The notes: generated by a model from the sequence alone, not told the origin. DNA of 64,000 nucleotides from Dictyostelium discoideum (GCA_000004695.1 CM000151.3:6112001-6176000), one strand, 5' to 3'. Shown: positions 9,990-51,868, counted from the stretch's first letter. Numbers and translations: made by a program.

Positions 9990-10673
9990 ATTACAATTTT
10001 AAAAAGTCCAAAATAAAGAATAAAAAAAAAAAAAAAAAATAAAAAAAAAAAAGTAAAAAGTAAAAAGTAAAAAAAATAATAATAATAATAAAGATGGGTG
10101 AAAAAAATAATAATTGGTGGGATACTTTTTTATTATTATTATTTTTTTTATTTTTTATTATTATTATTATTATTACTATTATTATTATATTTGTGTAGTG
10201 TGACAATGAAAAATTATGTTATAAAATAAAAGAGAAAAAAAAAAATAAAAAAAAAAAAAAATAAAAAAAAATGAAAAAAATAAATTAAAAAAAAAATATC
10301 TTAACTGCTGCGGTATCAAATAAATAAATTTTTATTATATTATTATGGCATCAGAGTGTTAAAATAAAAAAAAAAATAAAAAATAAAAAAATTAATATTA
10401 ACAATTCTATATATTAAAAATTTATTAAATAGGCAATGTTTTAATTTTTTTTTTTAATTTTTTTTTTTTTTACACAATTACAGTACTGGTTGGAAAAAAA
10501 AAAAAAAAAAAAACTAAATTTAGAGAAAAAGATTTACTTAGTTGGTTAAAATAAAATAGTTTCAAAAAAAAAAAAAAGTGATCCCGTTACTATTAAAATT
10601 TTTTTTTTTTTTTTTTGAAAAAATTACTTTTTTTTTTTTTTTTTTTTTTTTTATCGTTTTTTTTTTCTTTCTA

Positions 10674-10710
<37 letters not shown>

Positions 10711-11588
10711 TCCAACCCAAACAACAAAGGTAAGCATAATTTTTATATGCCCAAAAAAAAAAAAAAAAAAAAAAAAAAAATAAAAGGTATCCAGGGGAAT
10801 TTAAATGATGATCAAAATATATTTGCTATTCTTAGTTATTTATCAATCATGCTGAATGGAAATTTCTGATTTAATCCTCCCTTCATACCTTTATTGGGCC
10901 AATATTTAAATATTCTTTAAATATAATAATACTAATATTTTTCTTTTGAATTATTTAGGTTTTTTTTTTCTCTGATAACAATCCTTGAAATATTTCACAC
11001 TGACAAATGAATTTATTAAATAAAAAAAAAATTTAGTTTTATAAAAAAAAAAAAAGGTTTTCGTGTTTATGATATTTTTTTATTTTTTTTATTTATTTTT
11101 TATTTTTGACTACTTTGTATAATAATTTATTTTATTTCATTTTTTTCTATTTTTAGATTTTTTAAATAATAATTTTTTTTTTTTTTTTTTTTTTTTATAG
11201 AAAAAGAAAATTATTTGATGACTGTATACATATGCAAACAGGCGATATTTAAAAAACAAGAATGGAATTTGGTATCATCACACTTTTTAATTTGTTTTTT
11301 TTTTAATTTTTTTTTAATTTCGACCATCGTTTTTATTTTTATTTTTTTTTTTTTATTTTTTTTTTTATTTTTTTGTGTTTTTCTTGTACAGTCATTCATA
11401 TTAAAAAAATAAAAAATAAAAAATAAAGAAAAACAAAACTATTATACAAATTCGAAACATATCGATAATACAACATAAAACAAATTACCTTTTTTAATTT
11501 TTTTTAATTTTTTTTAATTTTTTTTTTTTTTTTTTATTATTTTTGGAAACTTAAAAATAGTTTATTGCTAATAGTAAAAATATTAATA

Positions 11589-13076
11589 ATGGAGGCATTA
11601 AATAACCCTATGTCAGCACCATTTTTTTCATTTGTGGTTAAAGTAATAGGAATATGGATTATATTTTTTGGAATTTTAAAATTAATTTATGTAGGTATTA
11701 TTAATTATTTATTTTTTATTTATTATTATTTTTAATTAAAATTAATTTTAAAATGAAAATATATATATATATAAATAAATAGATAAAATATAAAGATCAA
11801 ATTGATATAGATGGATTTTTAGAAAGAACAAATTTAAGTGTTCAATTATTTTATATTGGTTTTTCAACGACTAGATTAAATTCAATGATTAAATCAATTT
11901 CGAATGGAAGATATGAAAGATTTTGGTATTATTGGTTTAAAATTGGAAGTTGGGTATCATTATCATTGTTACCACTTTCAATTGGATTATTGATTTATAA
12001 TCTTTTCATTATTTTCATTAAACCTACTGGTATTGAACCAGTTATTAGTCCAATTGTACCGGGTGTTAATGTGAAAGGTTCAGATTCTTGGTATCTAATA
12101 ATTTCAGTATTAATAAGTATGATCATTCATGAATTAGGTCATGCAATTGCATCCTATGTTTCAAAATGTGAAATTAATAGTATAGGTTTCTTCTTTTTAT
12201 TTATAATGCCTGGTGCTTCTGTAAATTTAGATTATGTAAGTAAAATTCATTATTATTTAAATAAAAATAAAAAAATAAAATAAATTAAAAACTAAAACTA
12301 AATAATTAAATAATTAAATAGATTGAATTAGATAAAATTAGTTTATGGCAAAAATTAAGAATTCAGTGTGGTGGTGTTTGGCATAATGTTGTTTTATGTA
12401 TTATTGGTTATTTATTATTATCTTCATCATCATTTTTATTATCACCATTATATAAAATTTCAAATGATAAATTATATATTACTGGTATACCGAATGTAAA
12501 TATTATAATTATTATTATTATTATTAATATTTTATTATTATTATTATTTTAATATATTTATTTTTTTTTTTTAATAGGGATCATTATTAGAAAGAAATTT
12601 AAATATTGGTGATCAAATTTTATCAATTAATGATTGTAAAATTAGTAATAGGAGTGATCTTGTAGAATGTATATATAAAGAATTGGATAAGACTAGATCA
12701 TATTGTATTTCACAAAATACTATAACATGTTTAGAGAATGTTTTTAATAATAATAATAATAATAACACAAATGTAAATTTAAGTAATGCAAATAATAAAA
12801 AAATTAATTTAATAAATCAAATTGATAATGATAAACGATTAAGAGAATGTTTTGGAATTAATGATGCGACAACTTTGGTTGAATGTGTACCTGTTAGTAT
12901 TGATTCCCCATCAGAGTGTGCAAAATCAAAAAAAGAGTGTATCAATTTCAATCAATTCAATTACCATATATTTCATCTTAATTTATTAAGTCAAGATTTT
13001 GATAATGTTGAACAATTATCATTTTTAGGTACTGCTCAACAATTATGGGATTCTTGTAAGTATAATTAAATTAAAC

Positions 13077-13111
<35 letters not shown>

Positions 13112-13435
13112 TATCTTAATATAATTTATTCATTAATTTATTATTTTTATAAAAAAAAAAAAAAAAAAGTTATTGTTAATAATTATCAAAGTAGATTTGT
13201 ATTTTTAAATGGTTGGGATTTACCATGGTATTTTAATCAATTCTTTAGTTATTTAATACCCGTTTCAGCTGGTTTAGCTGCATTTAATGCAATTGCGATA
13301 CCAAATATGGATGGTGAACATATTTTGGAAACAATATTATCAATTATATTTTTAAAGTTTGGTGGTAGTGCTTGTGGTAATGATAAAAAGAATTCACCAA
13401 ATAATAAAATTAATAAGACAAAAATTAATAATACC

Positions 13436-13503
<68 letters not shown>

Positions 13504-13651
13504 GGAATCATCATCGTCATCAGTTTTATCAAAAAAAGAAAAAAGAGAAAGATTAAAATTAATTATTTCAAAAGTTATTAAAGTTTCAACGATTCTATTG
13601 TTTGGTTTAACAGTTATTTTATCATTTTATAATTTAAAATATCAAAGATAA
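11589..13651 (+). CDS. Site-2 protease (MBTPS2-like M50 intramembrane metalloprotease). 5 exons: join(11589..11690,11783..12235,12322..12495,12578..13055,13170..13651), 562 aa
   Basis: HELGH zinc-binding motif in a hydrophobic segment. A PDZ-like insert follows. The second motif is NMDGEH (LDG-type) in a C-terminal TM region. Donors are GTAGGT/GTAAGT/GTAAAT. The acceptor of the last intron is placed by frame requirement and is less certain. Confidence 0.75.
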
Positions 13652-14075
13652 ATAAAAACAATTGTTCATAATTTCTTTTCTTTTATTTTATTTTTTATTT
13701 TCTGAAGTTCTAATTATCTTTTATTTATTTAAATTGGTTAAAATATTAAATTCATATTTAAATCTGCTTGTGGAGAATATTAATTATTTAAAATTAAATA
13801 AATGAAAAGAATCTAATTAATTAATTTTAATTTTTAAAAACTTTAAAAAAATTAAATTGTTGAGGCGATTAAATAAACAATGATGTTCGAATTTATTATT
13901 AGCAAAGTGTAAAAAAAAAAAAAAATATTATTATTTTTTTATAAAAGATTATAAAATCATTATCTTGTACTTGTTGATATCATACTCTTTGATCATAAAT
14001 TTATTTTAATATTGTATGTCAACATATTAATTTTACAAATATAATCTCTTGTTCCTAAGAATTAAGTAGTGGGGT

Positions 14076-14155
<80 letters not shown>

Positions 14156-14263
14156 TATAAATAGATTTTTTTTTTTTGTAATTAAATCAATTATAAAATC
14201 AATTATTATTTAAATCTAAAAACAAAGAAAAATAAACTATATATATATATATATATATAAAAA

Positions 14264-14516
14264 TGTTATTCAGTAAGTGTCTAAAAAAAAAAAAAAAAAA
14301 AAAAATATAATAATTATAAAAAACAAAATTCTAATCATTATTTTTTTTTTTTTTATAGAATCAGTTATTTCCTTATCAAATAAATCATTAAATGTCACAT
14401 CTAGATCATTAGTTTCAAATGATTCTAATTTAAATACTTTAAATTTAACTTGTGATTCTGTTTCAAGTGTAACTTCAACAACTTTCTTTACAAGACCAAA
14501 CTTTATAAACTATTAA
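14264..14516 (+). CDS. Candidate micro-gene: 57-aa Ser/Asn/Thr-rich peptide MLFKSVISLSNKSLNVTSRSLVSNDSNLNTLNLTCDSVSSVTSTTFFTRPNFINY. 2 exons: join(14264..14273,14359..14516)
   Basis: TATAAATAGA at 14157, then ATGTTATTCA|GTAAGT, an 85-nt poly-T intron, ATAG acceptor and exon 2. A paralogous exon 2 lies at 50439..50596 on the minus strand. Confidence 0.3.
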
Positions 14517-15228
14517 AAAAAAGTAAAAAAAAAATTATATAATTGAAATAAAAAAAAATATAAAGGGCCGACCAAAAATTAAAAATAAAAAAAAAAATTG
14601 TATTTTATGTAATTTTAATCAGTCAAAGGATTGTTTCACATCTTTAATAGTATTTAATTTTTGAACTTTTCAAAATAATTTTATTTTTAATTTATTATAA
14701 TATGATAAAAGTTATTAAATCTCAGTACTAAACCATGGTAAGATTGAATTGATTTTTATTAATTTCTTTAATTTTTTTGAAAATATTCGTACGAGCTATT
14801 TTTTCAAAAAATGTAAAAATAGCGAACGAATAGCAACATTAATTATAGAATCATTATTATAAGTTTTTGTCCGAAGATCGATTTCCATATACAGTAACAA
14901 TCTATAACCGAAGTCAGTTATTCAGAATAACAAATTACCTTTAAATCCTTCCCAGGTTTCTTAGAATAATAATTCAGTATAAAAAGCCAAAATAAAATAA
15001 ATAAAAATCATTATTGTTTAAATCATAGTTAGTGTAAAGATATAATATTATTTAGTGTTAAAATATAAATATAAATATAAATAAAATTAATAAAGAATTA
15101 ATAATATTATTACTACTCATATTTGTGTGTAATTACAATAGTAATTAAGGGTTCACACATATGTCTTTATTTAGTATTGTTATTTTGGTAAATATAGGCA
15201 ATACAGTTTATTTCAAAAATATCGATTA

Positions 15229-15302
15229 GTTCGGATGGTGTAGTCGGTTATCACGAATCCTTAACACGGATTAGGTCGTGGGTTCGATTCCCGCTCTGAA
15301 TA
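15229..15302 (+). tRNA. tRNA-Val(AAC): tRNA-Val (anticodon AAC)
   Basis: Cloverleaf reads GTTCGGA TG GTGT AGTCGGTTATC ACG AATCC TTAACAC GGATT AGGTC GTGGG TTCGATT CCCGC TCTGAAT A. D-loop and anticodon loop are near-identical to eukaryotic tRNA-Val(AAC). The T-loop B box is GGTTCGATTCC. Confidence 0.9.
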
Positions 15303-15369
15303 CAAACTAATGCTTTTATAAAAAAAAATTCTCAATTTGAGTGTGTTCGAGTAAAAAAGAAAAAATGAA

Positions 15370-15715
15370 TTTTTTCGATAAACTTAAAGGGATGGGATCT
15401 CAATTCACTAGATATTAGCAAAACAAATAAAAAAGAAAGAATCTACCCAAATTTAATCGGCATAATTATACATCAACTATGGAGAATAATTTGTCACAAA
15501 CTATTCAATCAAGACGAATCTAAAACTCCACCCTCATTTGATCCAACATTAATTGAAAAAGAACTAACCAACTTAATTAAAATAGAGAAATTCATTTTAA
15601 TAAAGAAGATTGAAAGGAATGAAACAATATACAAATTAAATAACAGAGACCAATTAATAATCAACTTCAACACATCATGGCATAACCCGAACACTCCAAA
15701 CCCAATTCCACTATA

Positions 15716-15753
<38 letters not shown>
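15370..15753 (+). mobile_element. TRE3-type non-LTR retrotransposon, 5'-truncated 3' fragment (ORF2 C-terminal tail plus a 37-nt poly(A))
   Basis: Translation (...ERIYPNLIGIIIHQLWRIICHKLFNQDESK...NPNTPNPIPL*) is ~60% identical to the C-terminal tails of the elements at 19497-19652 and 20676-20993. It sits directly downstream of tRNA-Val. Confidence 0.6.
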
Positions 15754-15755
<2 letters not shown>

Positions 15756-18700
15756 AAGTAGTAGTAATCATAATATAACCAAAAATATCAACATATAACA
15801 ATATAAAAATTTAAAAATTTAAAAATCTAAAAATTTAAAAATGTAATAAAATATAACAATACACCGCTTTTAGGTAAAAAAAAAAAAAAAATAAACTTAA
15901 AGGTGAACTCAACTTAGGCGAAGAAGAGTTAATAAAAAAACTATTCAAATAAGGTTATTCTACCCACATACCTTGGAATTAAATAGTAATTAAACAAAAT
16001 TAATAGATAATTTCATAGTTAATGGTACTCTTAACATTGTCAGAAGACAAAAGGGTATAACAGTATTCGGTAGAATACTAAAAGAAAAATTCACATTATT
16101 ACACGAGTGTTACAGCACTTTCAAGTATGAAGATTTCCCACTGCAAAAATTCATACTTTACACCCCAGGATATCACTATGTCCACTTTTACACATTTACA
16201 AAAAACATAATAAAAAAAATAAACAATCAAATGGTAAAAGAAAACTGGGGATTGGAGCCATTACTAATAGATGAATGCAACATAGTAATGCTACCAGATG
16301 TGATTAGATATTCATGCATACTATAATTTAATAAAGAAGATGATATCTCAATCATTAAAACAAACATTGATGCTATAAAAGGTAGTAAGCATCCAATAAG
16401 AGCCTTCATCTCTGAATATAACAATAAAGAAATAAGAGATGTTAGAAAAAAAAAAAACACAAGTAATAAAAACCAACAACCAACAACTACAAATACAACT
16501 AAATCAATACCATCAACTCCACCAACAACTAATGCATCAACAACCACACCAATAACAACCACACCAATAACAACCACACAAACAACAACCACACCAACAA
16601 CAACCACACATCAATTACCAACAAGCAATACAACAATCTACAACCTAAACAAAACTACTACTACTACTACTACTACTACAAAACCTATCAATAAAATTAC
16701 TACAAGCAATGGTACCAAGTTTCCAATTGCCAGTAGTATTAGAAAATAATGGAACAATTAAAATTATTACTATGGAACTGCAGAGGTAATCAATCAACCA
16801 ACGCTAAGAATAAAACAGAAGAAACGATAAAAAGAATTGGCACTCAATTAGCACTCCTAACTGAAACTAATTTCAATGGATTCAACCACCACAAAACAAT
16901 GTTCAACTTTGAAAGAATAGATCATGGTTCAGGTAAAGGAACTGGCATAGCAATAGAAAATAGAGATACAAGAAAAGGCCACATATCAATAAACTTCAAA
17001 GACGATGATGGTAGAATACTATCAATTAAATACAATTCCTTTAATTCTATCAACATATTATTGATCTATGCTCCAGCGACTATATCTGAAAGAAACACCT
17101 TCATAATCAACTCAAAATCACTGTTTAAAAAATATAATTCAATCAACCATCAAATAATAGCAGGCGACTTCAATAACAACCACGATTGCAACAGCTTCTT
17201 CGGTACTGAATTACGTAAAATAATAGACCAAGACATGCTACTAGATACTGGTATTGAAGAAAACACTCCAACATTTCCAAGATCAATGAAGAGACTAGAT
17301 AGAATCTACTGTCATCCAACACTACTAAACCAAAATTCAAAACTGGTAGTCCACAACACAGTATTTAACAAATCAGATCACTTTCCCATCACAATCACAA
17401 TACAAACCAACAGAGAAACAGCAACAACAACAACAACCAAACTAGAAAGACTCCCTTGGACATTATGTAAAGAAATTCTCAACAACAAACATATACATGA
17501 TGGGTTATCAGAATTAATCAGTAAGAACAAAGATAAGATCAAATCAGTGGAGGAATGGACGAAATTTAAAAATAATGTCATCAGAGATTATTTAAAAAAA
17601 GAACAAAACAAAATAAAGAAAGAAAAGAACAAAAGAAAATACGTAATCCACAAATTACTTGGAAATAGTGATATCATTCCAAAGATGAGAAAAGAACTCA
17701 ATGAAGAAATAAGTAGAATATTAGAAGAAGAAAGAAAGGTAAAAGCATGGGATATCAAATTAAAACTCCACCTGCATCAAGAAACACCAAGCAAATACCT
17801 CACAAGTATCCTTAAATCCAGAGCCAAAGATAAATCAATATTCCAAATAAAAGATAAAGATAATAAGACCATATCAGATAAAGAGAACATAGCAAAAAGA
17901 TTTGTTGAATTCTATCAAGATCAATATGAAGAGAAAGAAGATAACGAAGAAACCCACAAGAAGTTATTAGAAAAATGGGAAGTAGACGTTGATTTAATCA
18001 AGAAACTCGAGATAGACAGACCGATAAGAATACATGAAGTGACCAAAGCAATCAAAACTTCAAGTATCCACAAATCTCCAGGTTTAGACGGTATCAATGC
18101 ACTATTCTACAAGTACCACATCAACTCAATAGCAAGAATATTGACTATAGCTTTCAACGACCTCCTCACAAATAAGAAAGAAATCCCCACAAAATTCAAA
18201 GAAGGAGTAATAACAACAATATTCAAAAAAGGAGATGAACTAAACATTTCAAATAGAAGACCAATCACCCTTCTCAATACAGATTACAAAATTTTAAGCA
18301 AAATTCTCAACAGTAGATTATTAGATATCACCAGTAAAATTATCAACAAATTTCAAAACGGCTTTGTTCCAAACAGGTTCATCCAAGACAATATTCAGAT
18401 CATGAAGGAAGTAATAGAAATAAGTAACAAAAGAAAGAACAATACACTCATTACCTTTTACGATTTTAACAAAGCATTCGATTCAATCAGCCACAAGAGT
18501 ATCACAAGAACATTAGAGCATATTGGTATCCCCCCAAAATTCACAGCGATCCTACTAAACCTACTCAAAGATACTAAAAACAAAATAAAGATCAACGAAT
18601 TTTTAGTCAATGGAATAACAATCAGAAGAGGAACAAAACAAGGAGACCCAATATCACCAACAATCTTTGCTCTAGTTTTAGAACCACTTCTAATATATAT

Positions 18701-20327: not shown

Positions 20328-20399
20328 TCCTTGTTGGTCTAGTGGTGAGGATTTTCGCCTGTCACGCGAAAGGCCCGGGTTCAATTCCCGGACAGGGAG
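20328..20399 (+). tRNA. tRNA-Asp(GTC): tRNA-Asp (anticodon GTC)
   Basis: TCCTTGTTGGTCTAGTGGTGAGGATTTTCGCCTGTCACGCGAAAGGCCCGGGTTCAATTCCCGGACAGGGAG. Near-identical to the canonical eukaryotic tRNA-Asp(GUC). Followed by a C and a T6 Pol III terminator. Confidence 0.9.
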
Positions 20400-20452
20400 C
20401 TTTTTTGGAAGATTTCAAAATTCCTTGTTAAATTTTATATTAACCAATTCCG

Positions 20453-40384: not shown

Positions 40385-41237
<853 letters not shown>

Positions 41238-41342
41238 ATTTTAAAAAACTAAAATAAAATAATAATAATAAGTTATTTGTAAATATAATTAAAACTAAAA
41301 ACAACACTATTAAAAAAGATATTTTATTATTTATCTATTGGT

Positions 41343-42250
41343 TTGTTAAAATTAAAATTTTTATTTTTCATCAATAATAGTGGGATCAACATAACAAAAT
41401 GTTTTAATTTGTTTATCATTTACATTTAGATCTTTAAGTGAGTTAAAAATATAACCTTCCTTAACATTTCCAGCCATATATACTTTTAAATAAACTAGTT
41501 GTTTGAGATTGGTTGAAAAATCAATTAAAGATGAAAATCGTTTAGATTTACCAATTTTTAAACTTTTAAAAAATCAATTTCTTTATTGAATTTATTTCCA
41601 ATATAAAGAAATTCAATATTTTTTGGTATTCTAGGAAGTTTATTATTTAATTCTCTTGTGAAGCCCAAATTTTTTATTGTTTTTGGTATTTTTGTATTTG
41701 AACCACATTCTTCAATTGATAAAAATTTAATTGAAGATTTAACTTTTTTTAATAACGATAATTGAGATTTTCATTCAATTGAAAGAAATTCAAGAATATT
41801 GGGTAAAATTAGATTTTCTCCGATTTTAGTATGATGACCTAATCTTAAAATAATTAAATTATTTGGTAATGCATCATTATCAATACATTCTTTGAATCTA
41901 CTACCAAATTTTATTGAGTTGATTGTGTGGTAAATCACCTTTTGATATTATTAGGTTCTGATTAATTAATATTTCTTTAACTGAATATGGAATTATTCCG
42001 AATGGGATAAAAGCTCCCATTACTTTATCATTTATTTTAGTTTCATCATTTGAAATTACCAAAACTGTTAAATAATTTCATAATGGATATTCTCTTAATG
42101 AATTAAAATTATGTTTAGTTTTATTATGTGCAATATTAAATTTCCTTAAATGATAAAATATATATTTATTCCTTAAATTAACATTTTTCAAAACTTTAAA
42201 AAACAATTCATCATTTTCTAATTTAATTTCACTAAATCTATAAATAAATA
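41343..42250 (-). pseudogene. FNIP-like repeat protein pseudogene (multiple stops and frameshifts), paralog of 45246..46193
   Basis: The minus-strand reading gives KLENDELFFKVLKNVNLRNKYIFYHLRKF...IGKSKRFSSLIDFSTNLKQLVYLKVYMAGNVKEGYIFNSL, interrupted by many TAA/TGA codons. Confidence 0.5.
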
Positions 42251-42976
42251 TTTAAAAATATACACTAATTTTTATCAATATGGTTTATTTAAAATTTTTA
42301 ATCCAAAAAAAAGAATAAAAAAAAAAAAATAATTATCAAATTTATTTTTAACTTAATTTGATTTTTTATAAAAAAAAAATAAAAAAAAAAAAAATTCCAT
42401 AATTGGAAAACAGGATAAAAATAAAAAAAAATTATATTTTTTTTTCTAATTATGGAAATTTATTTTTTCTTTTTAAATTACTTTTTTTATTTTTTTATCA
42501 ACATATCTTTGAAAATATGTCATTCTTTTTTTTATGTCATTTTGTTTATTTTTTGAGTTTTCTATTTATATACTAATCCATATCAAAAATAAATAAAATA
42601 AAATTATTGATAAAAAAAAAATTATTAATATAATTAAAAACAAGTTTTTTTTTATTTTTATTTTTTTTTTATTTTTTTTTTTTTTATTTTTTTATTTTTT
42701 TTTTTTTATTTTTTTATTTCACAAACATCTCAAAATCAAATATGACAATATAAATAATAATAGATATAAATCATTTACACAATAGTGGAAGTTTAATTGC
42801 AACTTTAAGAGGGTATAAATATGTTTTACTTGGGCGCACTGACAGTTTCCAATGATTATGTCATTTGAATTTTGAATTTTATATTCCAATCAATATGATT
42901 CAATAGCATCGTCATTGACTGGTCGGTTAATAATACAATCACTTCAATATCTTTCTAATCAAATACAACCACTATA

Positions 42977-43077
<101 letters not shown>

Positions 43078-43355
43078 TTATTATTTAGATACAGTGATTC
43101 ATTTGGCGAAAGTAAAGCAAGGAATTTTGATAAATCAAATCATGTGATTTCTTTATCATCAAGCATAATTAATTGTAGTCAAAGTTCAATCAATGCAGGT
43201 AATATTAATGTTTAACAAATAGATTTCGAGATGATTACAGCTCAACCACAATAACAACTACATCAATAACAGTGGTGATTTACGTTTCAAATCAATATTT
43301 AAAATGGTACCATTGAATTGACCAGACAGACACCTCATCTAATAGTTGTTGTATT

Positions 43356-43474
43356 TGTGTAATGCAAAGTTCCAAACTTTTATTTGGTGAAACCAGATCC
43401 TATTCAAGTAAATGGTTACTTCAATACGATCAGGTTTCCCCAAATCGTAGTTAGGAACTTTATATTACACAAAT
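43356..43474. repeat. Long imperfect inverted repeat (arms ~56-58 nt, ~80% complementary) forming a single hairpin, within a non-AT-rich island (42780-43700)
   Basis: Left arm tgtgtaatgcaaagttccaaacttttatttggtgaaaccagatcctattcaagtaaatgg. Right arm ttacttcaatacgatcaggtttccccaaatcgtagttaggaactttatattacacaaa. Aligned by eye. Confidence 0.5.
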
Positions 43475-43806
43475 ACAACAACAACCACTACTAATACTCG
43501 ACAACAAACAAAGAGTTTATCAAGTTTAAATTCAGTTGATGGAAATAGTATTTGTAGTGGTATTAGTTGAAAATAGTAGATAAAGTACTTCATAGTAATA
43601 GTTTAGGTGTTAGAGATAGTATTGGTAGTAGTAGTAGTTCAAGTGGATCAACAATTTTAAATAAAATCACCAGTTAAATTTTATGTAAATTGCCAAAAAT
43701 CAAATTCAATGACATTGTATATGATAATAATAAACTTAAATATTAATATAAATAATATTAATACATAAGTAAAAATTAAATAAAACTAGAATACTTCCCA
43801 AATTAA

Positions 43807-43845
<39 letters not shown>

Positions 43846-43899: not shown

Positions 43900-44830
43900 A
43901 TCAAAATTTTATTTTTCATTAACAATACTGGGATCAACATAACAAAATATTTTAATATCTTGATCATTTATGTTTAGAATTTTAAGAGAATTAAAAATAT
44001 AACCTTCTTTTACATTTTCAGTCATATATACTCTTAAATAAACTAGTTTTTTGAAAATCGTTTTGATCTACCAATTTTTAAAACTTTTAAATGTGATAAA
44101 TTTAAAAAATCAATTTCTTTATTGAATTTATTTCCAATATAAAGAAATTCAATATTTTTTGGTATTGTAGGAAGTTTATTATGAAACTCTCTAATGAAAG
44201 CCAAATTTTTAATTGTTTTTGGAATTCTAGTATTTGAATTACATTCTTCAATACACAAAAATTGTATTGAAGACGTAACTTGGTCTAATAATGGTAGTTG
44301 AAATTTTCTTTGAATTGTAAGAAATTTAAGATTTTTTGGTATAATTAAATTATTACTGATTTTGGTATTATGACCTAGTCCTATTTTAATTAATTTTTTT
44401 GGTAACATATCATTATCAATATATTCTTTGAATCTTTGATCGAATTTTATTGATTTGATAGAATCTGGTAAATCACCTTTTGAAATTATTAGATTTTGAT
44501 TAATTATTAATGATACTACAGAATTTGGAATTATTTTATTTGGAATAAAAGCACCCATTGCTTCATCATTTATTTTAGTTTCATCATTTGAAATTTTTAA
44601 AAATGTTAAATAATTTCTTAAAGGATATTCTAATAAAGAATCAAAACTATGTTTAGGATTATTATTTGCAATTTTAAATTTCCTTAAATAATAAAATATA
44701 TATTTATTCCTTAAATAAACATTTCTCCATACTTAAAAAAATAATTAATCATTTTCTAGTTTAATTTTACTAAATGTTTCTGTATCGACTATGAATCTTT
44801 TTAAATATTCATTAATTGATTTATCCATTG
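43900..44830 (-). pseudogene. FNIP-like repeat protein paralog with two in-frame TAA codons in the N-terminal region and a frameshift near the C-terminus
   Basis: It reads KLEND*LFF*VWRNVYLRNKYIFYYLRKFKIAN... in frame with ORF 44043..44558. The C-terminal segment (KQLVYLRVYMTENVKEGYIFNSL) is in another frame. Confidence 0.55.
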
Positions 44831-45245: not shown

Positions 45246-46193
45246 TTAAATATAATTTTTAAGGTCCACAAAACCTTCAAAAATTTCTATTAATTGATCA
45301 TTAAAACATAAAATTTGAAGTGATGTAAAATTATAATGATATTCCAATAAATAAAATTCAGAGTATACTTTTAAATAAATTAGTTGTTTTAGTGAAAGAG
45401 CAATGTCAGATAAGGATTTAAATTTTTTCGATCTACCAATTTTTAAAATTTTTAAATGTTTTAAATCTAAAAAATCAATTTCTTTACTGAATTTATTTCC
45501 AATATGAAGGTATTCGATATTTGGTGGTATTATTGGAAGTTTATTATGAAATTTTGAAGTTAAACCTAAACTTTTAATTGTAGTTGGAATTTTTGTATCT
45601 GCATCACATTCATTAATACCTAAATATTCAATTGATGATGTAACTTGATCTAATAATGATAATTGTGATTTTCTTTCAATGGATAATGATTTTATACATT
45701 TTGGTAAAATAAAATCTTCATCAATTTTAGTATGATATCCCAACTTTAATTTAATTACATTTTTTGGTATCATATCATTTGAAATTAATTCTCTGAATCT
45801 TTTACCAAAAGCTAAGGTATGAATTGAATCTGGTAAATCTCCTTTTGATATTAATATATTTTGATTTATTATTAATAATCCAACAGAATTTGGAATTATT
45901 TTATTTGGAATTGTTGATCCAAAATCTATATCATTTTGTAATGTTTCGTCATTTGTAATTTTCAATCCAGTTAAATAATTTCTTAATGGATATTCTCTTA
46001 AACTCTCAAAATTATGTTTTATATTAAAATTTGCAATTTTAAAATTCCTTAAATGATAAAATATACATTTATTTCTTATAAAAACATTTCTCCAAACTTT
46101 AAAAAATAATTCTTCCTTTTCTAATTTAATTTTACTATTTATTTCATAATCAATTTCTAATATTAATGAAAAATTTTTACATAAAACATCCAT
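45246..46193 (-). CDS. FNIP-like repeat protein, intact 315-aa ORF
   Basis: Repeated IPNS..L.I..FG..F...I....LP..IK.L units. Head of the local paralog family. Confidence 0.6.
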   Translation of the reverse strand: MDVLCKNFSLILEIDYEINSKIKLEKEELFFKVWRNVFIRNKCIFYHLRNFKIANFNIKHNFESLREYPLRNYLTGLKITNDETLQNDIDFGSTIPNKIIPNSVGLLIINQNILISKGDLPDSIHTLAFGKRFRELISNDMIPKNVIKLKLGYHTKIDEDFILPKCIKSLSIERKSQLSLLDQVTSSIEYLGINECDADTKIPTTIKSLGLTSKFHNKLPIIPPNIEYLHIGNKFSKEIDFLDLKHLKILKIGRSKKFKSLSDIALSLKQLIYLKVYSEFYLLEYHYNFTSLQILCFNDQLIEIFEGFVDLKNYI

Positions 46194-46411: not shown

Positions 46412-49400
46412 TTAATTTTTTTTAATTTTATTTTTATTAAAATTTAATTTATTATTAGATTCTAATTCAAATAAAATTGATTTTGATCTTTCTAAGACCG
46501 AATTTGGTATACCCGCCATTTTTGCACAAAAAATACCATAAGATTTATTTGACATTCCAGGTACGATTTTATGAGTGAACAAGATTTCATCTTCATCCTC
46601 TTGAATTGCTAAACAATAACATTTTATATGAGGTGTTTCATCTAAATTTTTAGTTAGTTCATGATAATGAGTTGCAAAGAGAGTTCTACATCTGTTAACT
46701 TGATTAAGATATTCCACTACAGATTGAGCAATTGAAATACCATCCAAAGTACTTGTACCACGACCTACTTCATCCATAATTACGAAAGATCTATTAGTAG
46801 CCTTCTTTAGAATTGAAGCTGTTTCAACCATCTCAACCATAAATGTTGATTTATCATTTGAAAGATCATCTGAAGAACCCACTCTACTAAATATAGCATC
46901 AACAATACCGATTTTAGCATAAGAAGCAGGTACGAATGAACCCATTTGAGCCATTAAAATGATTAAAGCATTTTGACGTAAAAATGTACTCTTTCCACCC
47001 ATATTAGGACCTGTAATTAACCAAAGATTTGCATCATCAATACCTTTATTCAATTGTAAATCATTACCAATAAATTCAGTTGTTGAATTTTCAACTGTTG
47101 GATGTCTACCATCTTTAATATCTAAAATTAATCGATCATTATCATTATTATCATTATCAACAACAATATTATTATTATTGTTATTATTATTATTAACTAA
47201 AATTGGTTTAATATATCTTCTTTGTTTTGAAATTTTAGCTAAACTTGTTGAAATATCTAAATTTGCAATTACTGAACTAACTTGTTTAATTTCATTACTA
47301 TATTTACAAACTAAATCAACCAATACATAATAAAGTTGAATTTCATATTCTAAAACCTTTGAAGCCGCTCTATTAATTTCATCTTCTAATATGATTAAAT
47401 CACTTGATTTAAATCTCATTACAGAGAGTAGAGTTTGAATATGAATGAAATTCAAAGGTATTTTATCACGATCAGATGATGAGATTTCAATGTAATAACC
47501 AATGATTGAATTTTTATTTACTTTAAGTTTTGGTATCTTTAATTTGTTTCTATAGGTTTCTCTAAATTCATTGATTAAAGCATCACTATTTCTTGAGATT
47601 AATTTATATCTATCCAATTCTTTCGAATAACCTTCCTTAATGAAACCACCATCATTTACACTAATCGAAGGTGGTGAATCAATCAATGCAGCCGAAAGGT
47701 GGTTCAATAATGGTGTTAAATGGGTTTGTTGAATTTTCAATAATAATTGATTAATCGATTCAGTTTGCTCATTGATTTTCATAGTTAAAAGTTTTGATTG
47801 TAATGATTCTTTTAAATGGAAAATCGATTGTAATGTACTGCCAATGGTATGTAAATCTCTTGGTCCTGATTTATTAATTTTTAAACGTTGAATACATCTT
47901 TCAATATCTGAACCAGCATTTAAAAAACTTCTAACTTCATTTGTCAACTCCATATTATTATAAAAGAATTCCAATTGATTCAATCTTGAATTGATTTCTT
48001 TCAATTCTAAACTTGGTGATTGAATTCTTGAGAATAATAATCTACCACCTTGTGGTGTTATAGTTTTATCAATACTTTCTAATAAACTACCTTTCTTATC
48101 ACCTTGATATGTTTTTGTAATTTCTAATGATTGCATTGTTGAATAATCAATAAACATTGAATTATGTGAATCAATTCTTTTTGGTAAATTTAATGAAAAT
48201 AATGGATTACTACTATTATCATTATTATTGCCAATACCAATATTTGTTTTAATTATATAACTTAAAATTGAACCTGCACTATTTAATTCATCATTTGAAA
48301 ATTCATTTTCAAAATATTCATTATTAATTTCATTATTATTATTATTATTAAATGCTTCATTAAAAATTTTAAAAGTTTTCTTTTTATAATTAAAACTTTT
48401 TAAATCATTTTCCATTGAAACATTATATGGTTTTAATATTTTTGAAATTTGTTGATTATAATTTAATGATGCTGGTATTAATATTTCTTTTGGTTGAATT
48501 CTATTTAATTCTGATGATAGATTTTCTAATGTTGATGAAGATATAAAGAAATCACCTGTACTAATATCTAACCATGATATTGAAAATTGTGAACTTGCTG
48601 AAAATTTTGTATTACTAATATTATTACTAATATTATTATTATTATTACTATTACTATTACTATTATTATTATTACTACTATCATCAGCAACCATTAAATA
48701 ATCATTAAGTTCAAATCCATTAGGTAAGATTGAACATAGATAATTACTATTGGATGTTAAATATCTATCTTCATATAAAGTACCAGGTGTAATGATTCTA
48801 ACGATTTGTCTATTTATAATTCTTCTACCTTCTTTTGCTTCATTAGAATCCTCAACTTGATCACAAATTGCTACTGATTTACCAAGTTTAACTAATTTAG
48901 CAATATGAATCTCTGCTGAATGTGATGGTACTCCACACATTGGTATCTCTCTATTTCTATTTTTACCTTGTTTTCTTGATGTTAACTTTTTTGGATTTTA
49001 ATTGATATATAAATATATGTATTAATAATTAATTTATAAAATCATGTAAATTGATTATTGATAATTATATACATACTGTTATACCTAATAAATTTGAAGC
49101 AATTTTTGCATCTTCATCAAACATTTCATAAAAATCGCCTAATCTAAAGAAAAGTATTTCATTTGGGTATTTCTTTTTAAATCCACTATATTGTTCCATT
49201 ACTTTTGTTGTTCCTTTAGCACTACTTAATCTTTTTCCTATTTTATCTTCTTCTTCTTCTTCCTCATCATCTTCATCCTCTTCTTCTATTGTATTATGAT
49301 TATCATCTTTATATTTTAGTTGTTTTGATGATTTGCTTAAATTTTTCCCAATTTTATCTTCTTTTTCTTCTTTTTCTTTTAATGTATTATTAACAATATT

Positions 49401-49748
49401 TTTACTTTTGATATTTTTAGTTGATGATCTACTTAATCTTTTTCCTATGTTATCTTCCTCTTCTTCTTCTTCTTCTTCTCCCTCTCCTTCTTCTTCCTCC
49501 TCTTCCTCTTCTTTAAATTTATTATTTTTTTGATCAACTGTTGATTTATCTTTATTTACATCAAAAACTTCTATTGGCTCATTTTTTTTTTTATTTATAA
49601 CTTTATATTTTGTGGTGGTTGAAAATGAATTTATATGTTGTGGTGGTTGTTGTCGTGAATATGATGTTAGATAAGTTGTTGATTGATTTATTAAAAAAAT
49701 ATTTCTATTTTTTGTGCAACTTTTACTAAATTTAACTATGCTATTCAT
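46412..49748 (-). CDS. MutS homolog, MSH1-type (N-terminal presequence-like region plus acidic Glu-rich insert). 2 exons: complement(join(46412..48985,49077..49748)), 1081 aa
   Basis: Domain I is YPNEILFFRLGDFYEMFDEDA. Exon 2 continues ...[29 protein letters not shown]. The ABC ATPase has Walker A LITGPNMGGKSTFLRQ, Walker B VIMDEVGRGTS and FATHYHELT. GTATGT donor with a 91-nt intron. Confidence 0.85.
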
Positions 49749-49962
49749 CGAAGTGCGAGGGGGGTCAAGGCAATGAATTTTTTTTTATTTTTTTTTTATT
49801 TTTTATATTTCTTTAATTTTAATTTTTTTTTTAAAAAAATCAAAAAAAAAAAAAAAAAAATATTAAAGAAATATAAAAAATAATAAAAAATTGCCAATTA
49901 ATTTTAAATCTGGAAAATAATGTTATAAACTAAATTATTGTCAGTTTTTTTAGAATATATTG

Positions 49963-49975: not shown

Positions 49976-50013
49976 AGCGATGTTATAAATCAAGCACAAA
50001 AAAATGTTAGTTG

Positions 50014-50087
50014 TATTCAGAGCGGGAATCGAACCCACGACCTAATCCGTGTTAAGGATTCGTGATAACCGACTACACCATCCGAAC
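50014..50087 (-). tRNA. tRNA-Val(AAC): tRNA-Val (anticodon AAC), second copy in inverted orientation
   Basis: The exact reverse complement of the 15229..15302 gene, including 12 bp of 5' flank. Confidence 0.9.
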
Positions 50088-50691: not shown

Positions 50692-51868
50692 GAATACCCT
50701 TTTTTTTTTAGTTTTTAATTTAATATTATACTAATATTTGAATAACCCATTGATTTTATAATTGATTGAATTAAAAAAAAAAAAAAAATTCTATTTATAC
50801 TTTTTTTTTTAAATTTTATTTTTTTTTTTAATTTCCAACACTAAAATTACCCCTGGTTAACCACTACTTAATTCTTATGAATAAAAGATATTTTTTGTAA
50901 AGTTTATATGTTGACATATAATATTAAAATAAATTTAAACCAAGGTGTATGATATCAACAATTAAAAGATAATGATTTTATTATCTGGTAAAATAAAATA
51001 AAAAAAATTTTTTTTTACTTTTTTTTTTTTTTTTTATAATTTGTATGATTCGAACATTATTGTTTATCACCTCAACAATTAAATTTATCACATTATATCC
51101 TCAATTATTAAATTTTTTGAGAGTATGAAATGTTAAATTTGATTTTTTATGGGTTAAAAATGAAAATTTGTGTCTTTGGAGATCTCCAATAATTAATATT
51201 GAGATTTTATTAAAAAAAACAATAATTATTATTTTTTCATTCACATTTTAAATATAATAAATCACCCAATTCCAAAACAATTTCAATGAGGTTTTAATAT
51301 GATATTTAATATTATTTTTTTTATTCTTTTTAAATGTTAATAATATTAAATTTTTTATTTTTTAAAAAAAAAAACTTAATATTATTAACATTGAAAGAAT
51401 AAAAAAAATAATATAAAATAATATAAACCCTTTTCTAAAATATATTTTGCATTTTAAAATGGAACAACTTTTTATTTAATTAAATGATTGAACTTTCATA
51501 TATTAAAATTTCAATTTATAATTTCAATTTTACCTTGGTATTCTATCGAGTTACTTACTTTTTCTTTTATTAAATCAATTGAATTTGCATAAAGAATATT
51601 ATTTATAAAACTTTTTTTTTAAAAAAAATAAAAAAAAGAAAAAAAGAAAAAATATTATACTATGGTAATTTGTTTTTATTTTATTTATTTTAATATTTTA
51701 TCAAAAGATAAAAACATAAATCTAATATATGCTAATAACATGTACTATTTGATTATTTAAAAGGTAGTGTTTATGTCGACAACATAATTTATAATATCAC
51801 ACATTGTTTATTATAAAAAATAAATTAAATTTAAAAAATTAAAAAATTAAAAAAAAAATAAATAAAAA

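Follow-up and report, generated by a model that had tools for sequence, protein, structure and literature searches.

Chromosome 2 of Dictyostelium discoideum AX4 carries, within the 64,000-nt stretch of DNA analysed here (the window), a 138-nt near-palindromic hairpin that is the product of an inverted duplication. The hairpin is present in two D. discoideum-like lineages and is missing, together with the non-AT-rich island that surrounds it, from the syntenic locus of Dictyostelium firmibasis. On balance, we regard it as a young, lineage-specific inverted duplication that is decaying neutrally and happens to fit the structure of a microRNA (miRNA) precursor. The hairpin is at best a proto-microRNA.

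Structure and genomic setting of the hairpin

Positions are those of the window and are converted to chromosome 2 coordinates by adding 6,112,000, which places the hairpin at about chr2:6,155,345-6,155,482. The MutS-family exon in the window is 100% identical to AX4 DDB_G0275999, which is located at chr2:6158412-6161199(-) (Rosengarten et al. 2017, supplementary table). Both ends of this gene fit the window, with the stop codon at 46412 and the ATG, from a reading of the open reading frame (ORF), at 49199. Three loci for comparison were retrieved via this neighbouring MutS exon: L001, from an AX4-like assembly that is 99.6% identical to the window; L007, from a divergent isolate labelled D. 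discoideum (GCA_054859355.1), the MutS protein of which is 96% identical; and L008, from D. firmibasis (locus 10001-16564; MutS 82% identical). The hairpin consists of the following parts:

43345-43411, no strand assigned: left arm of the hairpin, 67 nt (repeat-finder pair, ungapped comparison with 57/67 complementary, and folds)
43412-43415, no strand assigned: 4-nt terminal loop or spacer AATG, the centre of the quasi-palindrome (folds and repeat finder)
43416-43482, no strand assigned: right arm of the hairpin, 67 nt (repeat finder and ungapped comparison)

The repeat finder gives the arms as 85% complementary, and 57 of the 67 stem pairs (85%) are Watson-Crick, a proportion that rises to 88% when two G·U pairs on the + strand are included. 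The ten mismatches at the DNA level (43364/65, 43374, 43379-81, 43388, 43395, 43400 and 43405) fall at stem positions 20, 21, 30, 35-37, 44, 51, 56 and 61 of 67 and form symmetric 1x1, 2x2 and 3x3 internal loops, with no bulges or indels. The preliminary description had located the hairpin at 43356-43474, with arms of approximately 56-58 nt, about 80% complementary, that were interrupted by scattered mismatches and bulges. The position was right but the span covers only the inner part of the structure, the arms are longer and better matched than proposed, and the mismatches were confirmed whereas the bulges were not.

The 151-nt segment 43340-43490 folds on either strand as a single long unbranched hairpin, with z-scores of -12.5 (+) and -13.4 (-) relative to dinucleotide shuffles, none of which (0/200) was equally stable; the long imperfect hairpin originally proposed is thereby borne out. 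The minimum free energy (MFE) of the 138-nt hairpin is -66.4 (+) and -72.3 (-) kcal/mol at 37 °C (-0.48 and -0.52 kcal/mol per nt), and -86.9 (+) and -93.0 (-) kcal/mol at 22 °C (-0.63 and -0.67 kcal/mol per nt). Among sliding 150-nt folds on both strands of the whole window (mean -16.6, sd 7.3 kcal/mol) the site is an extreme outlier at -73.5 kcal/mol, the runner-up being at -47.1 kcal/mol. A chance hairpin is impossible and the structure is the product of an inverted duplication. Contiguous, ungapped arms with a 4-nt spacer are the signature of a local inverted duplication, and adjacent, in-register arms with a minimal spacer were found in AX4, L001 and L007.

The local order is THOC7, degenerate FNIP, T75, island, A40, FNIP, FNIP and MutS, with the following features:

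About 40392-41247, + strand: THOC7 (local gene order)
41327-42237, - strand: degenerate FNIP-repeat gene copy beside the island, frameshifted in AX4 and reduced to short ORFs
42645-42719, + strand: T75 run (81% T), a promoter-like AT-rich spacer upstream of the island, partly conserved in L007, with no G after it
42813-43085, no strand assigned: AX4-lineage-specific segment of ~165 nt of 30% GC (42813-42975) and (ATT)36 (comparison with L007)
43086-43700, no strand assigned: single-copy non-AT-rich island with the hairpin, 29.5% GC (composition, translations and alignment to L007)
43797-43844, - strand: T-run (A40 when read on +) and then GGG; conserved in L007, 315 nt upstream of the hairpin
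44043-44828, - strand: FNIP-repeat gene with a 214-aa model in L001; the hairpin lies ~560 nt downstream of its stop codon
45246-46193, - strand: FNIP gene (local gene order)
From 46412, - strand: MutS-family gene DDB_G0275999 (local gene order)

The GC content is 32.6% in the hairpin, 29.5% in 43090-43700 and 30.1% in 42780-42975, compared with ~10% in the flanking spacers and 21.9% in the whole window. A (ATT)36 microsatellite at 42977-43085 divides the island in two. On the + strand of the island there are S/T/N-rich reading frames broken by stop codons, and the longest ORF on either strand is no more than 57 aa. The composition and the absence of an ORF are as given in the preliminary description, which also had (ATT)n tracts on both flanks; this is correct for the left flank, but the right flank is an AT-rich stretch with the A40 run (43805-43844). 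The further suggestion that the island is a degenerate repeat remnant, of the sort from which Dictyostelium small-RNA loci arise, found no support in the analyses that follow.

A 202-aa stitched translation of the + strand of the island had no homologue at E≤0.01 among 5.8 billion proteins, and a six-frame Pfam scan of the island gave no match. Without protein or Pfam homology, neither a pseudogene of a known gene nor the remnant of a transposon ORF has support as a reading of the island. In self-BLAST of the island against the window, the two arms of the hairpin matched each other and all remaining hits were microsatellite noise. No second copy of the hairpin or island is present in the 64-kb window, L007 or L008 (~47 kb of related loci), and exact-core scans of metagenome contigs gave no hairpin matches; the hairpin is single-copy in the sequence examined. 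The small ORFs over the hairpin and a neighbouring 171-aa FNIP ORF have no records in public assemblies. As judged from sequence, there is no sign in the island of a transposon ORF, of part of an FNIP gene or of any known gene.

Several other features of the window were noted. The three FNIP genes at 41327-42237, 44043-44828 and 45246-46193 (all -) form a tandem array and are ~80% mutually identical. A DdR17 box C/D snoRNA gene is located at 10802-10871 (+) (Rfam RF01567, 101 bits, gathering score 80), and there are tRNA genes for Val(AAC) at 15229-15303 (+), Asp(GTC) at 20328-20400 (+) and Val(AAC) at 50013-50087 (-). Long (ATT)n/(AAT)n tracts recur at 40653-40795 (THOC7 intron) and at many sites between 53.9 and 60.0 kb, and dominate the unmasked self-BLAST; those at 54-60 kb are probably poly-Asn coding, on the - strand of a large gene. 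The second most stable 150-nt fold of the window, at 51281-51430 (-) with -47 kcal/mol, is an AT low-complexity self-complementary tract of 9% GC. An antisense lncRNA, CUFF_1576_1 (chr2:6160987-6161762; window 48987-49762, +), overlaps the 5' part of DDB_G0275999 (Rosengarten et al. 2017).

The locus in two D. discoideum-like lineages and in D. firmibasis

The hairpin of L001 is identical to that of the window. L007 keeps the hairpin at 16275-16410 (MFE -70.3 kcal/mol, z -11.9); the window segment 43058-43680 is present and co-linear, and the island aligns to L007 16701-16055 with 93.2% substitution identity. The hairpin thus occurs in two further assemblies, one AX4-like and one divergent, and cannot be an artefact of assembly; its presence in both AX4 and L007 indicates that the duplication predates their split. 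L007 lacks window 42813-42975 and has only ~8 units of the ATT repeat; these are read as ATG-(TTA)n (n=8) and open a small predicted ORF. In L007 the counterpart of the degenerate FNIP copy at 41327-42237 is intact, with 241 aa (17700-18445). This isolate has two additional genes, an FNIP gene beyond THOC7 and one for HSP20.

In D. firmibasis the syntenic locus has the order MutS-FNIP-FNIP-acetyltransferase, with no island, THOC7 or third FNIP copy, and no fold within it is better than -32 kcal/mol. The D. discoideum arrangement is therefore a several-kb insertion or rearrangement, or else there has been a loss in D. firmibasis. On these alignments, the island and hairpin are specific to the D. 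discoideum lineage. In the deposited D. firmibasis annotation, MutS and an FNIP gene are joined in one model of 1218 aa. AX4 and L007 are 6-10% apart at neutral sites and 4% apart in the MutS protein. This divergence is far above that expected within D. discoideum, so L007 may represent a cryptic or mislabelled sister species.

The substitutions between AX4 and L007 follow a neutral pattern. In the MutS exon, 23 of 239 four-fold degenerate sites (9.6%), 51 of 820 third codon positions (6.2%) and 18 of 1640 first and second codon positions (1.1%) differ. Differences are found at 10 of 137 hairpin positions (7.3%) and 40 of 589 island positions (6.8%), and thus, against a neutral range of 6.2-9.6%, neither hairpin nor island has a deficit of change. 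The left arm has 2/66 substitutions and one single-base deletion, the right arm has 7/67 substitutions, and the loop has one A to G change. Of these nine changes in the stem, seven disrupt a pair in one of the lineages and the other two create U·G; compensatory changes are absent. Right-arm positions 43446, 43448 and 43453 are mismatched in the window and paired in L007, while U-A pairs in the window at 43464 and 43467 are U·G in L007.

When the 67 stem pairs are compared between AX4 and L007, 54 are invariant, two have gone from U-A to U·G and none has changed on both sides. Four pairs (43365, 43374, 43379 and 43381 with their partners) are broken in AX4 and intact in L007, three (43385/43442, 43386/43441 and 43362/43465) are intact in AX4 and broken in L007, and four mismatches are common to both; 88.7% of the cells in the two-lineage pair table are paired. 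Neither covariation nor a deficit of broken pairs, as would mark a selected structured RNA, was found in this comparison of two lineages at ~7% divergence, which has low power, such that weak purifying selection falls below detection and the substitutions are unpolarised. If the paired state is ancestral, AX4 and L007 have each lost 3-4 pairs since their split. At the DNA level, six arm differences are shared, four are AX4-specific and five are L007-specific, and about six are older than the AX4/L007 split. This combination of shared and lineage-specific differences fits a repeat that was formerly more perfect and has decayed neutrally at a steady pace; by a rough estimate the duplication is about twice as old as the split.

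There is no consistent strand preference, as opposite strands fold better in the two lineages: the - strand in AX4 (-74.3 versus -67.9 kcal/mol) and the + strand in L007 (-70.3 versus -65.9 kcal/mol). For the asymmetry between G·U and C·A, four of five transition-type differences favour the + strand (manual count; one-sided p ~0.19, not significant).

Resemblance to microRNA precursors and other sources of hairpins

The high-confidence criteria of Kozomara & Griffiths-Jones, as used on D. discoideum by Liao 2018, include at least 10 reads per arm, a 2-nt 3' overhang, a common 5' end in at least 50% of reads, DrnB/RbdB dependence and, for the structure, a folding energy of < -0.2 kcal/mol/nt and at least 60% of the duplex bases paired. 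The hairpin is below this energy on both strands, and any 21-nt window of its stem has no more than 4-5 unpaired positions (counted from the mismatch positions), which corresponds to an estimated >80% pairing from the mismatch spacing. The miRNA-precursor geometry that was proposed for it therefore agrees with the structural criteria for D. discoideum precursors in energy, pairing, length and intergenic position. Most amoebozoan miRNAs lie between genes, and they have a distinctly lower AT content than the sequence around them (Edelbroek 2024). The hairpin is likewise intergenic and less AT-rich than its spacer, its length is within the 100-160 nt of D. discoideum precursors (ddi-mir-1185 is another of these; ddi-mir-1177 has 151 nt and ddi-mir-1186 147 nt), and its MFE of -0.63 to -0.67 kcal/mol per nt at 22 °C falls within their range of -0.43 to -0.73. 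Whole miRNA 'modules' of D. discoideum have no counterpart in the orthologous D. firmibasis spacer, which is shorter (Edelbroek 2024), and the absence of the whole hairpin locus from the syntenic D. firmibasis region resembles this gain and loss of modules. Unlike D. discoideum miRNA precursors, the hairpin is a continuous 67-bp near-palindromic stem closed by a 4-nt terminal loop, it is not in the published lists that were checked, and its substitutions are neutral, with none compensatory.

With up to three mismatches allowed, the hairpin matches none of the 29 mature miRNA or candidate sequences collected from publications on D. discoideum. Substrings of the hairpin do not occur in the accessible portions of the supplements of Liao 2018 and Edelbroek 2024, and its 15-mers gave no occurrences in a full-text literature search. 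In Table S1 of Liao 2018, the only chromosome 2 miRNA loci are at 0.58 and 1.65 Mb, away from the hairpin at 6.155 Mb. Three D. discoideum ShortStack clusters that pass only some criteria (139 nt at -0.591, 144 nt at -0.575 and 162 nt at -1.05) are not reproduced by the hairpin at 22 °C, which gives -0.61 to -0.68 and -0.55 to -0.60. The stringent screen of Edelbroek 2024 misses some known miRNAs, as its authors state.

The alternative that survives best, possible but clearly less probable than neutral decay, is that the 67-bp stem is diced at a low level or imprecisely into ~21-nt RNAs that are unselected or not yet selected. The island would be transcribed either from a T-run promoter of its own or through read-through of the FNIP gene upstream on the - strand, and the products may include up to three phased duplexes, as in long D. 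discoideum hairpins. As a dsRNA substrate the stem is ideal, and small RNAs do arise from long hairpins in this organism. [quoted passage not shown] Long D. discoideum miRNA hairpins can give two adjacent duplexes (Liao 2018), unusually long hairpins have been proposed as newly evolved miRNAs (Edelbroek 2024), and mir-1184 is a precedent for a miRNA from a pseudogene exon. Low-level or imprecise processing would also account for the absence of the hairpin from the stringent lists. Against this, the hairpin does not fit the candidate clusters passing at least one set of criteria, and the available Rosengarten 2017 tables have no lncRNA at its position and no lncRNA end within ~1 kb of it. The published motif for pri-miRNA transcription start sites (TSS) is T-rich and then G, and the conserved T-run and G from 43844 down to 43797 (-) fits it; the motif occurs 110 times in the 64-kb window, so the T-run on the - strand carries little weight. 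Judged by eye, the right-arm sequence CCCCAAA departs from the DUSE ncRNA promoter motif [AT]CCCA[CT]AA.

A stronger form of this proposal, which we consider rather unlikely, is that the locus is a newborn hairpin-RNA gene, a precursor of a miRNA or of phased hairpin-siRNAs soon after its birth by inverted duplication, transcribed from the - strand and diced by DrnB. Transcription would then start at the T-run and G at 43797-43799 or come from FNIP read-through.

It is improbable that the hairpin is a bona fide, unannotated, DrnB-dependent miRNA gene acting by antisense pairing to a target. All structural criteria are in its favour, and its intergenic, GC-richer context and lineage-specific 'module' pattern match those of known ddi-miRNA loci. 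However, it is undetected in the accessible results of three independent published screens (miRDeep2, ShortStack and custom pipelines), the stem evolves neutrally through mostly pair-breaking changes, and the better-folding strand is not the same in AX4 and L007. At gathering thresholds no Rfam family covers the hairpin. A permissive search gave MIR9555 at 38 and 36 bits, one match per strand, compared with a gathering score of 119. The hairpin shares with MIR9555, mir-9413 and MIR2275 a generic long-hairpin shape, and the scores on both strands are weak and far under the respective gathering scores (119, 100 and 60.5 bits); Rfam homology was rejected.

More improbable still is the insertion into the island of a palindromic non-autonomous transposon (MITE-like) or of part of a Dictyostelium repeat already described. 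Palindromes that span the whole element are one recognised form of MITE and can serve as miRNA hairpins, as in human Made1/mir-548; the hairpin resembles them in that the whole element is an inverted repeat with a miRNA-like fold. Transposon-derived miRNAs (Thug-S) exist in D. discoideum, but the thug-S miRNAs are multicopy and located in a transposon intron, whereas the hairpin is single-copy in the sequence examined. In L007 it can be read with TA dinucleotide flanks, which carry no information at such AT content; no other target-site duplication was found, nor was a transposase or other Pfam remnant in any frame. In L007 the island around the hairpin keeps its colinearity and has diverged to the same extent, hence there was no recent insertion.

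The least probable reading, which we consider very unlikely, places the hairpin, incidentally or as a mirtron-like element, in an intron or UTR of a small orphan protein gene that is intact in L007 and pseudogenised in AX4: the L007 submitter annotation has a predicted 101-aa, Pfam-less gene at 16033-16705(-), equivalent to the + strand of the window, that spans the hairpin and has a predicted first exon reading MILLLLLLLLFGCSDSFGES..., resembling a signal peptide, and the AX4 insertion and (ATT)36 expansion remove the start codon, but this is a gene prediction only, which apparently the same submitter (from the locus-tag series) does not call in L001, the differences in the putative first exon are mostly non-synonymous (~6 versus 1-2, by manual reading of the alignment), no protein homologue was found, and the implied intron of ~400 nt and ~30% GC is atypical for Dictyostelium, in which introns are short and very AT-rich.

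Proposed origin and significance

For the favoured reading, a neutrally decaying inverted duplication, the following sequence of events is proposed. Approximately 70 nt of the non-coding or formerly coding island would have been copied in reverse orientation, adjoining the original, probably in a fold-back or template-switch event during replication that left the 4-nt spacer. The event would postdate the divergence from D. firmibasis and predate that between the two D. discoideum-like lineages. Both arms would then have gained substitutions at the neutral rate, their pairing not being under selection. RNA from either strand would form a 67-bp imperfect stem meeting the structural criteria for a substrate of Dicer (DrnB), and the locus may thus represent raw material for a miRNA and not a maintained miRNA gene, probably without function at present.

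Young plant MIR genes are reportedly born by inverted duplication, in a model attributed to Allen and colleagues from 2004. Like those genes, the hairpin is a long, near-perfect fold-back from a local inverted duplication that is young and present in one lineage; unlike them, it has no parent or target gene resembling the arms in the sequence examined.

The turnover of amoebozoan miRNAs is very fast, with only one shared by D. discoideum and D. firmibasis, and the origin of new ones is open (Edelbroek 2024). The locus is a cleanly dated inverted duplication with a precursor-like structure, and two lineages plus an outgroup allow its history to be traced. Whether or not small RNAs are made from it, this is a modest finding on a known kind of element. 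If none are made, the locus would serve as a negative control, a near-ideal hairpin that persists and decays neutrally outside the miRNA repertoire. If they are made, it would document in the Amoebozoa the route from inverted duplication to hairpin and then to miRNA, and if it is a newborn hairpin-RNA gene it would provide a dated example of how an amoebozoan miRNA 'module' originates.
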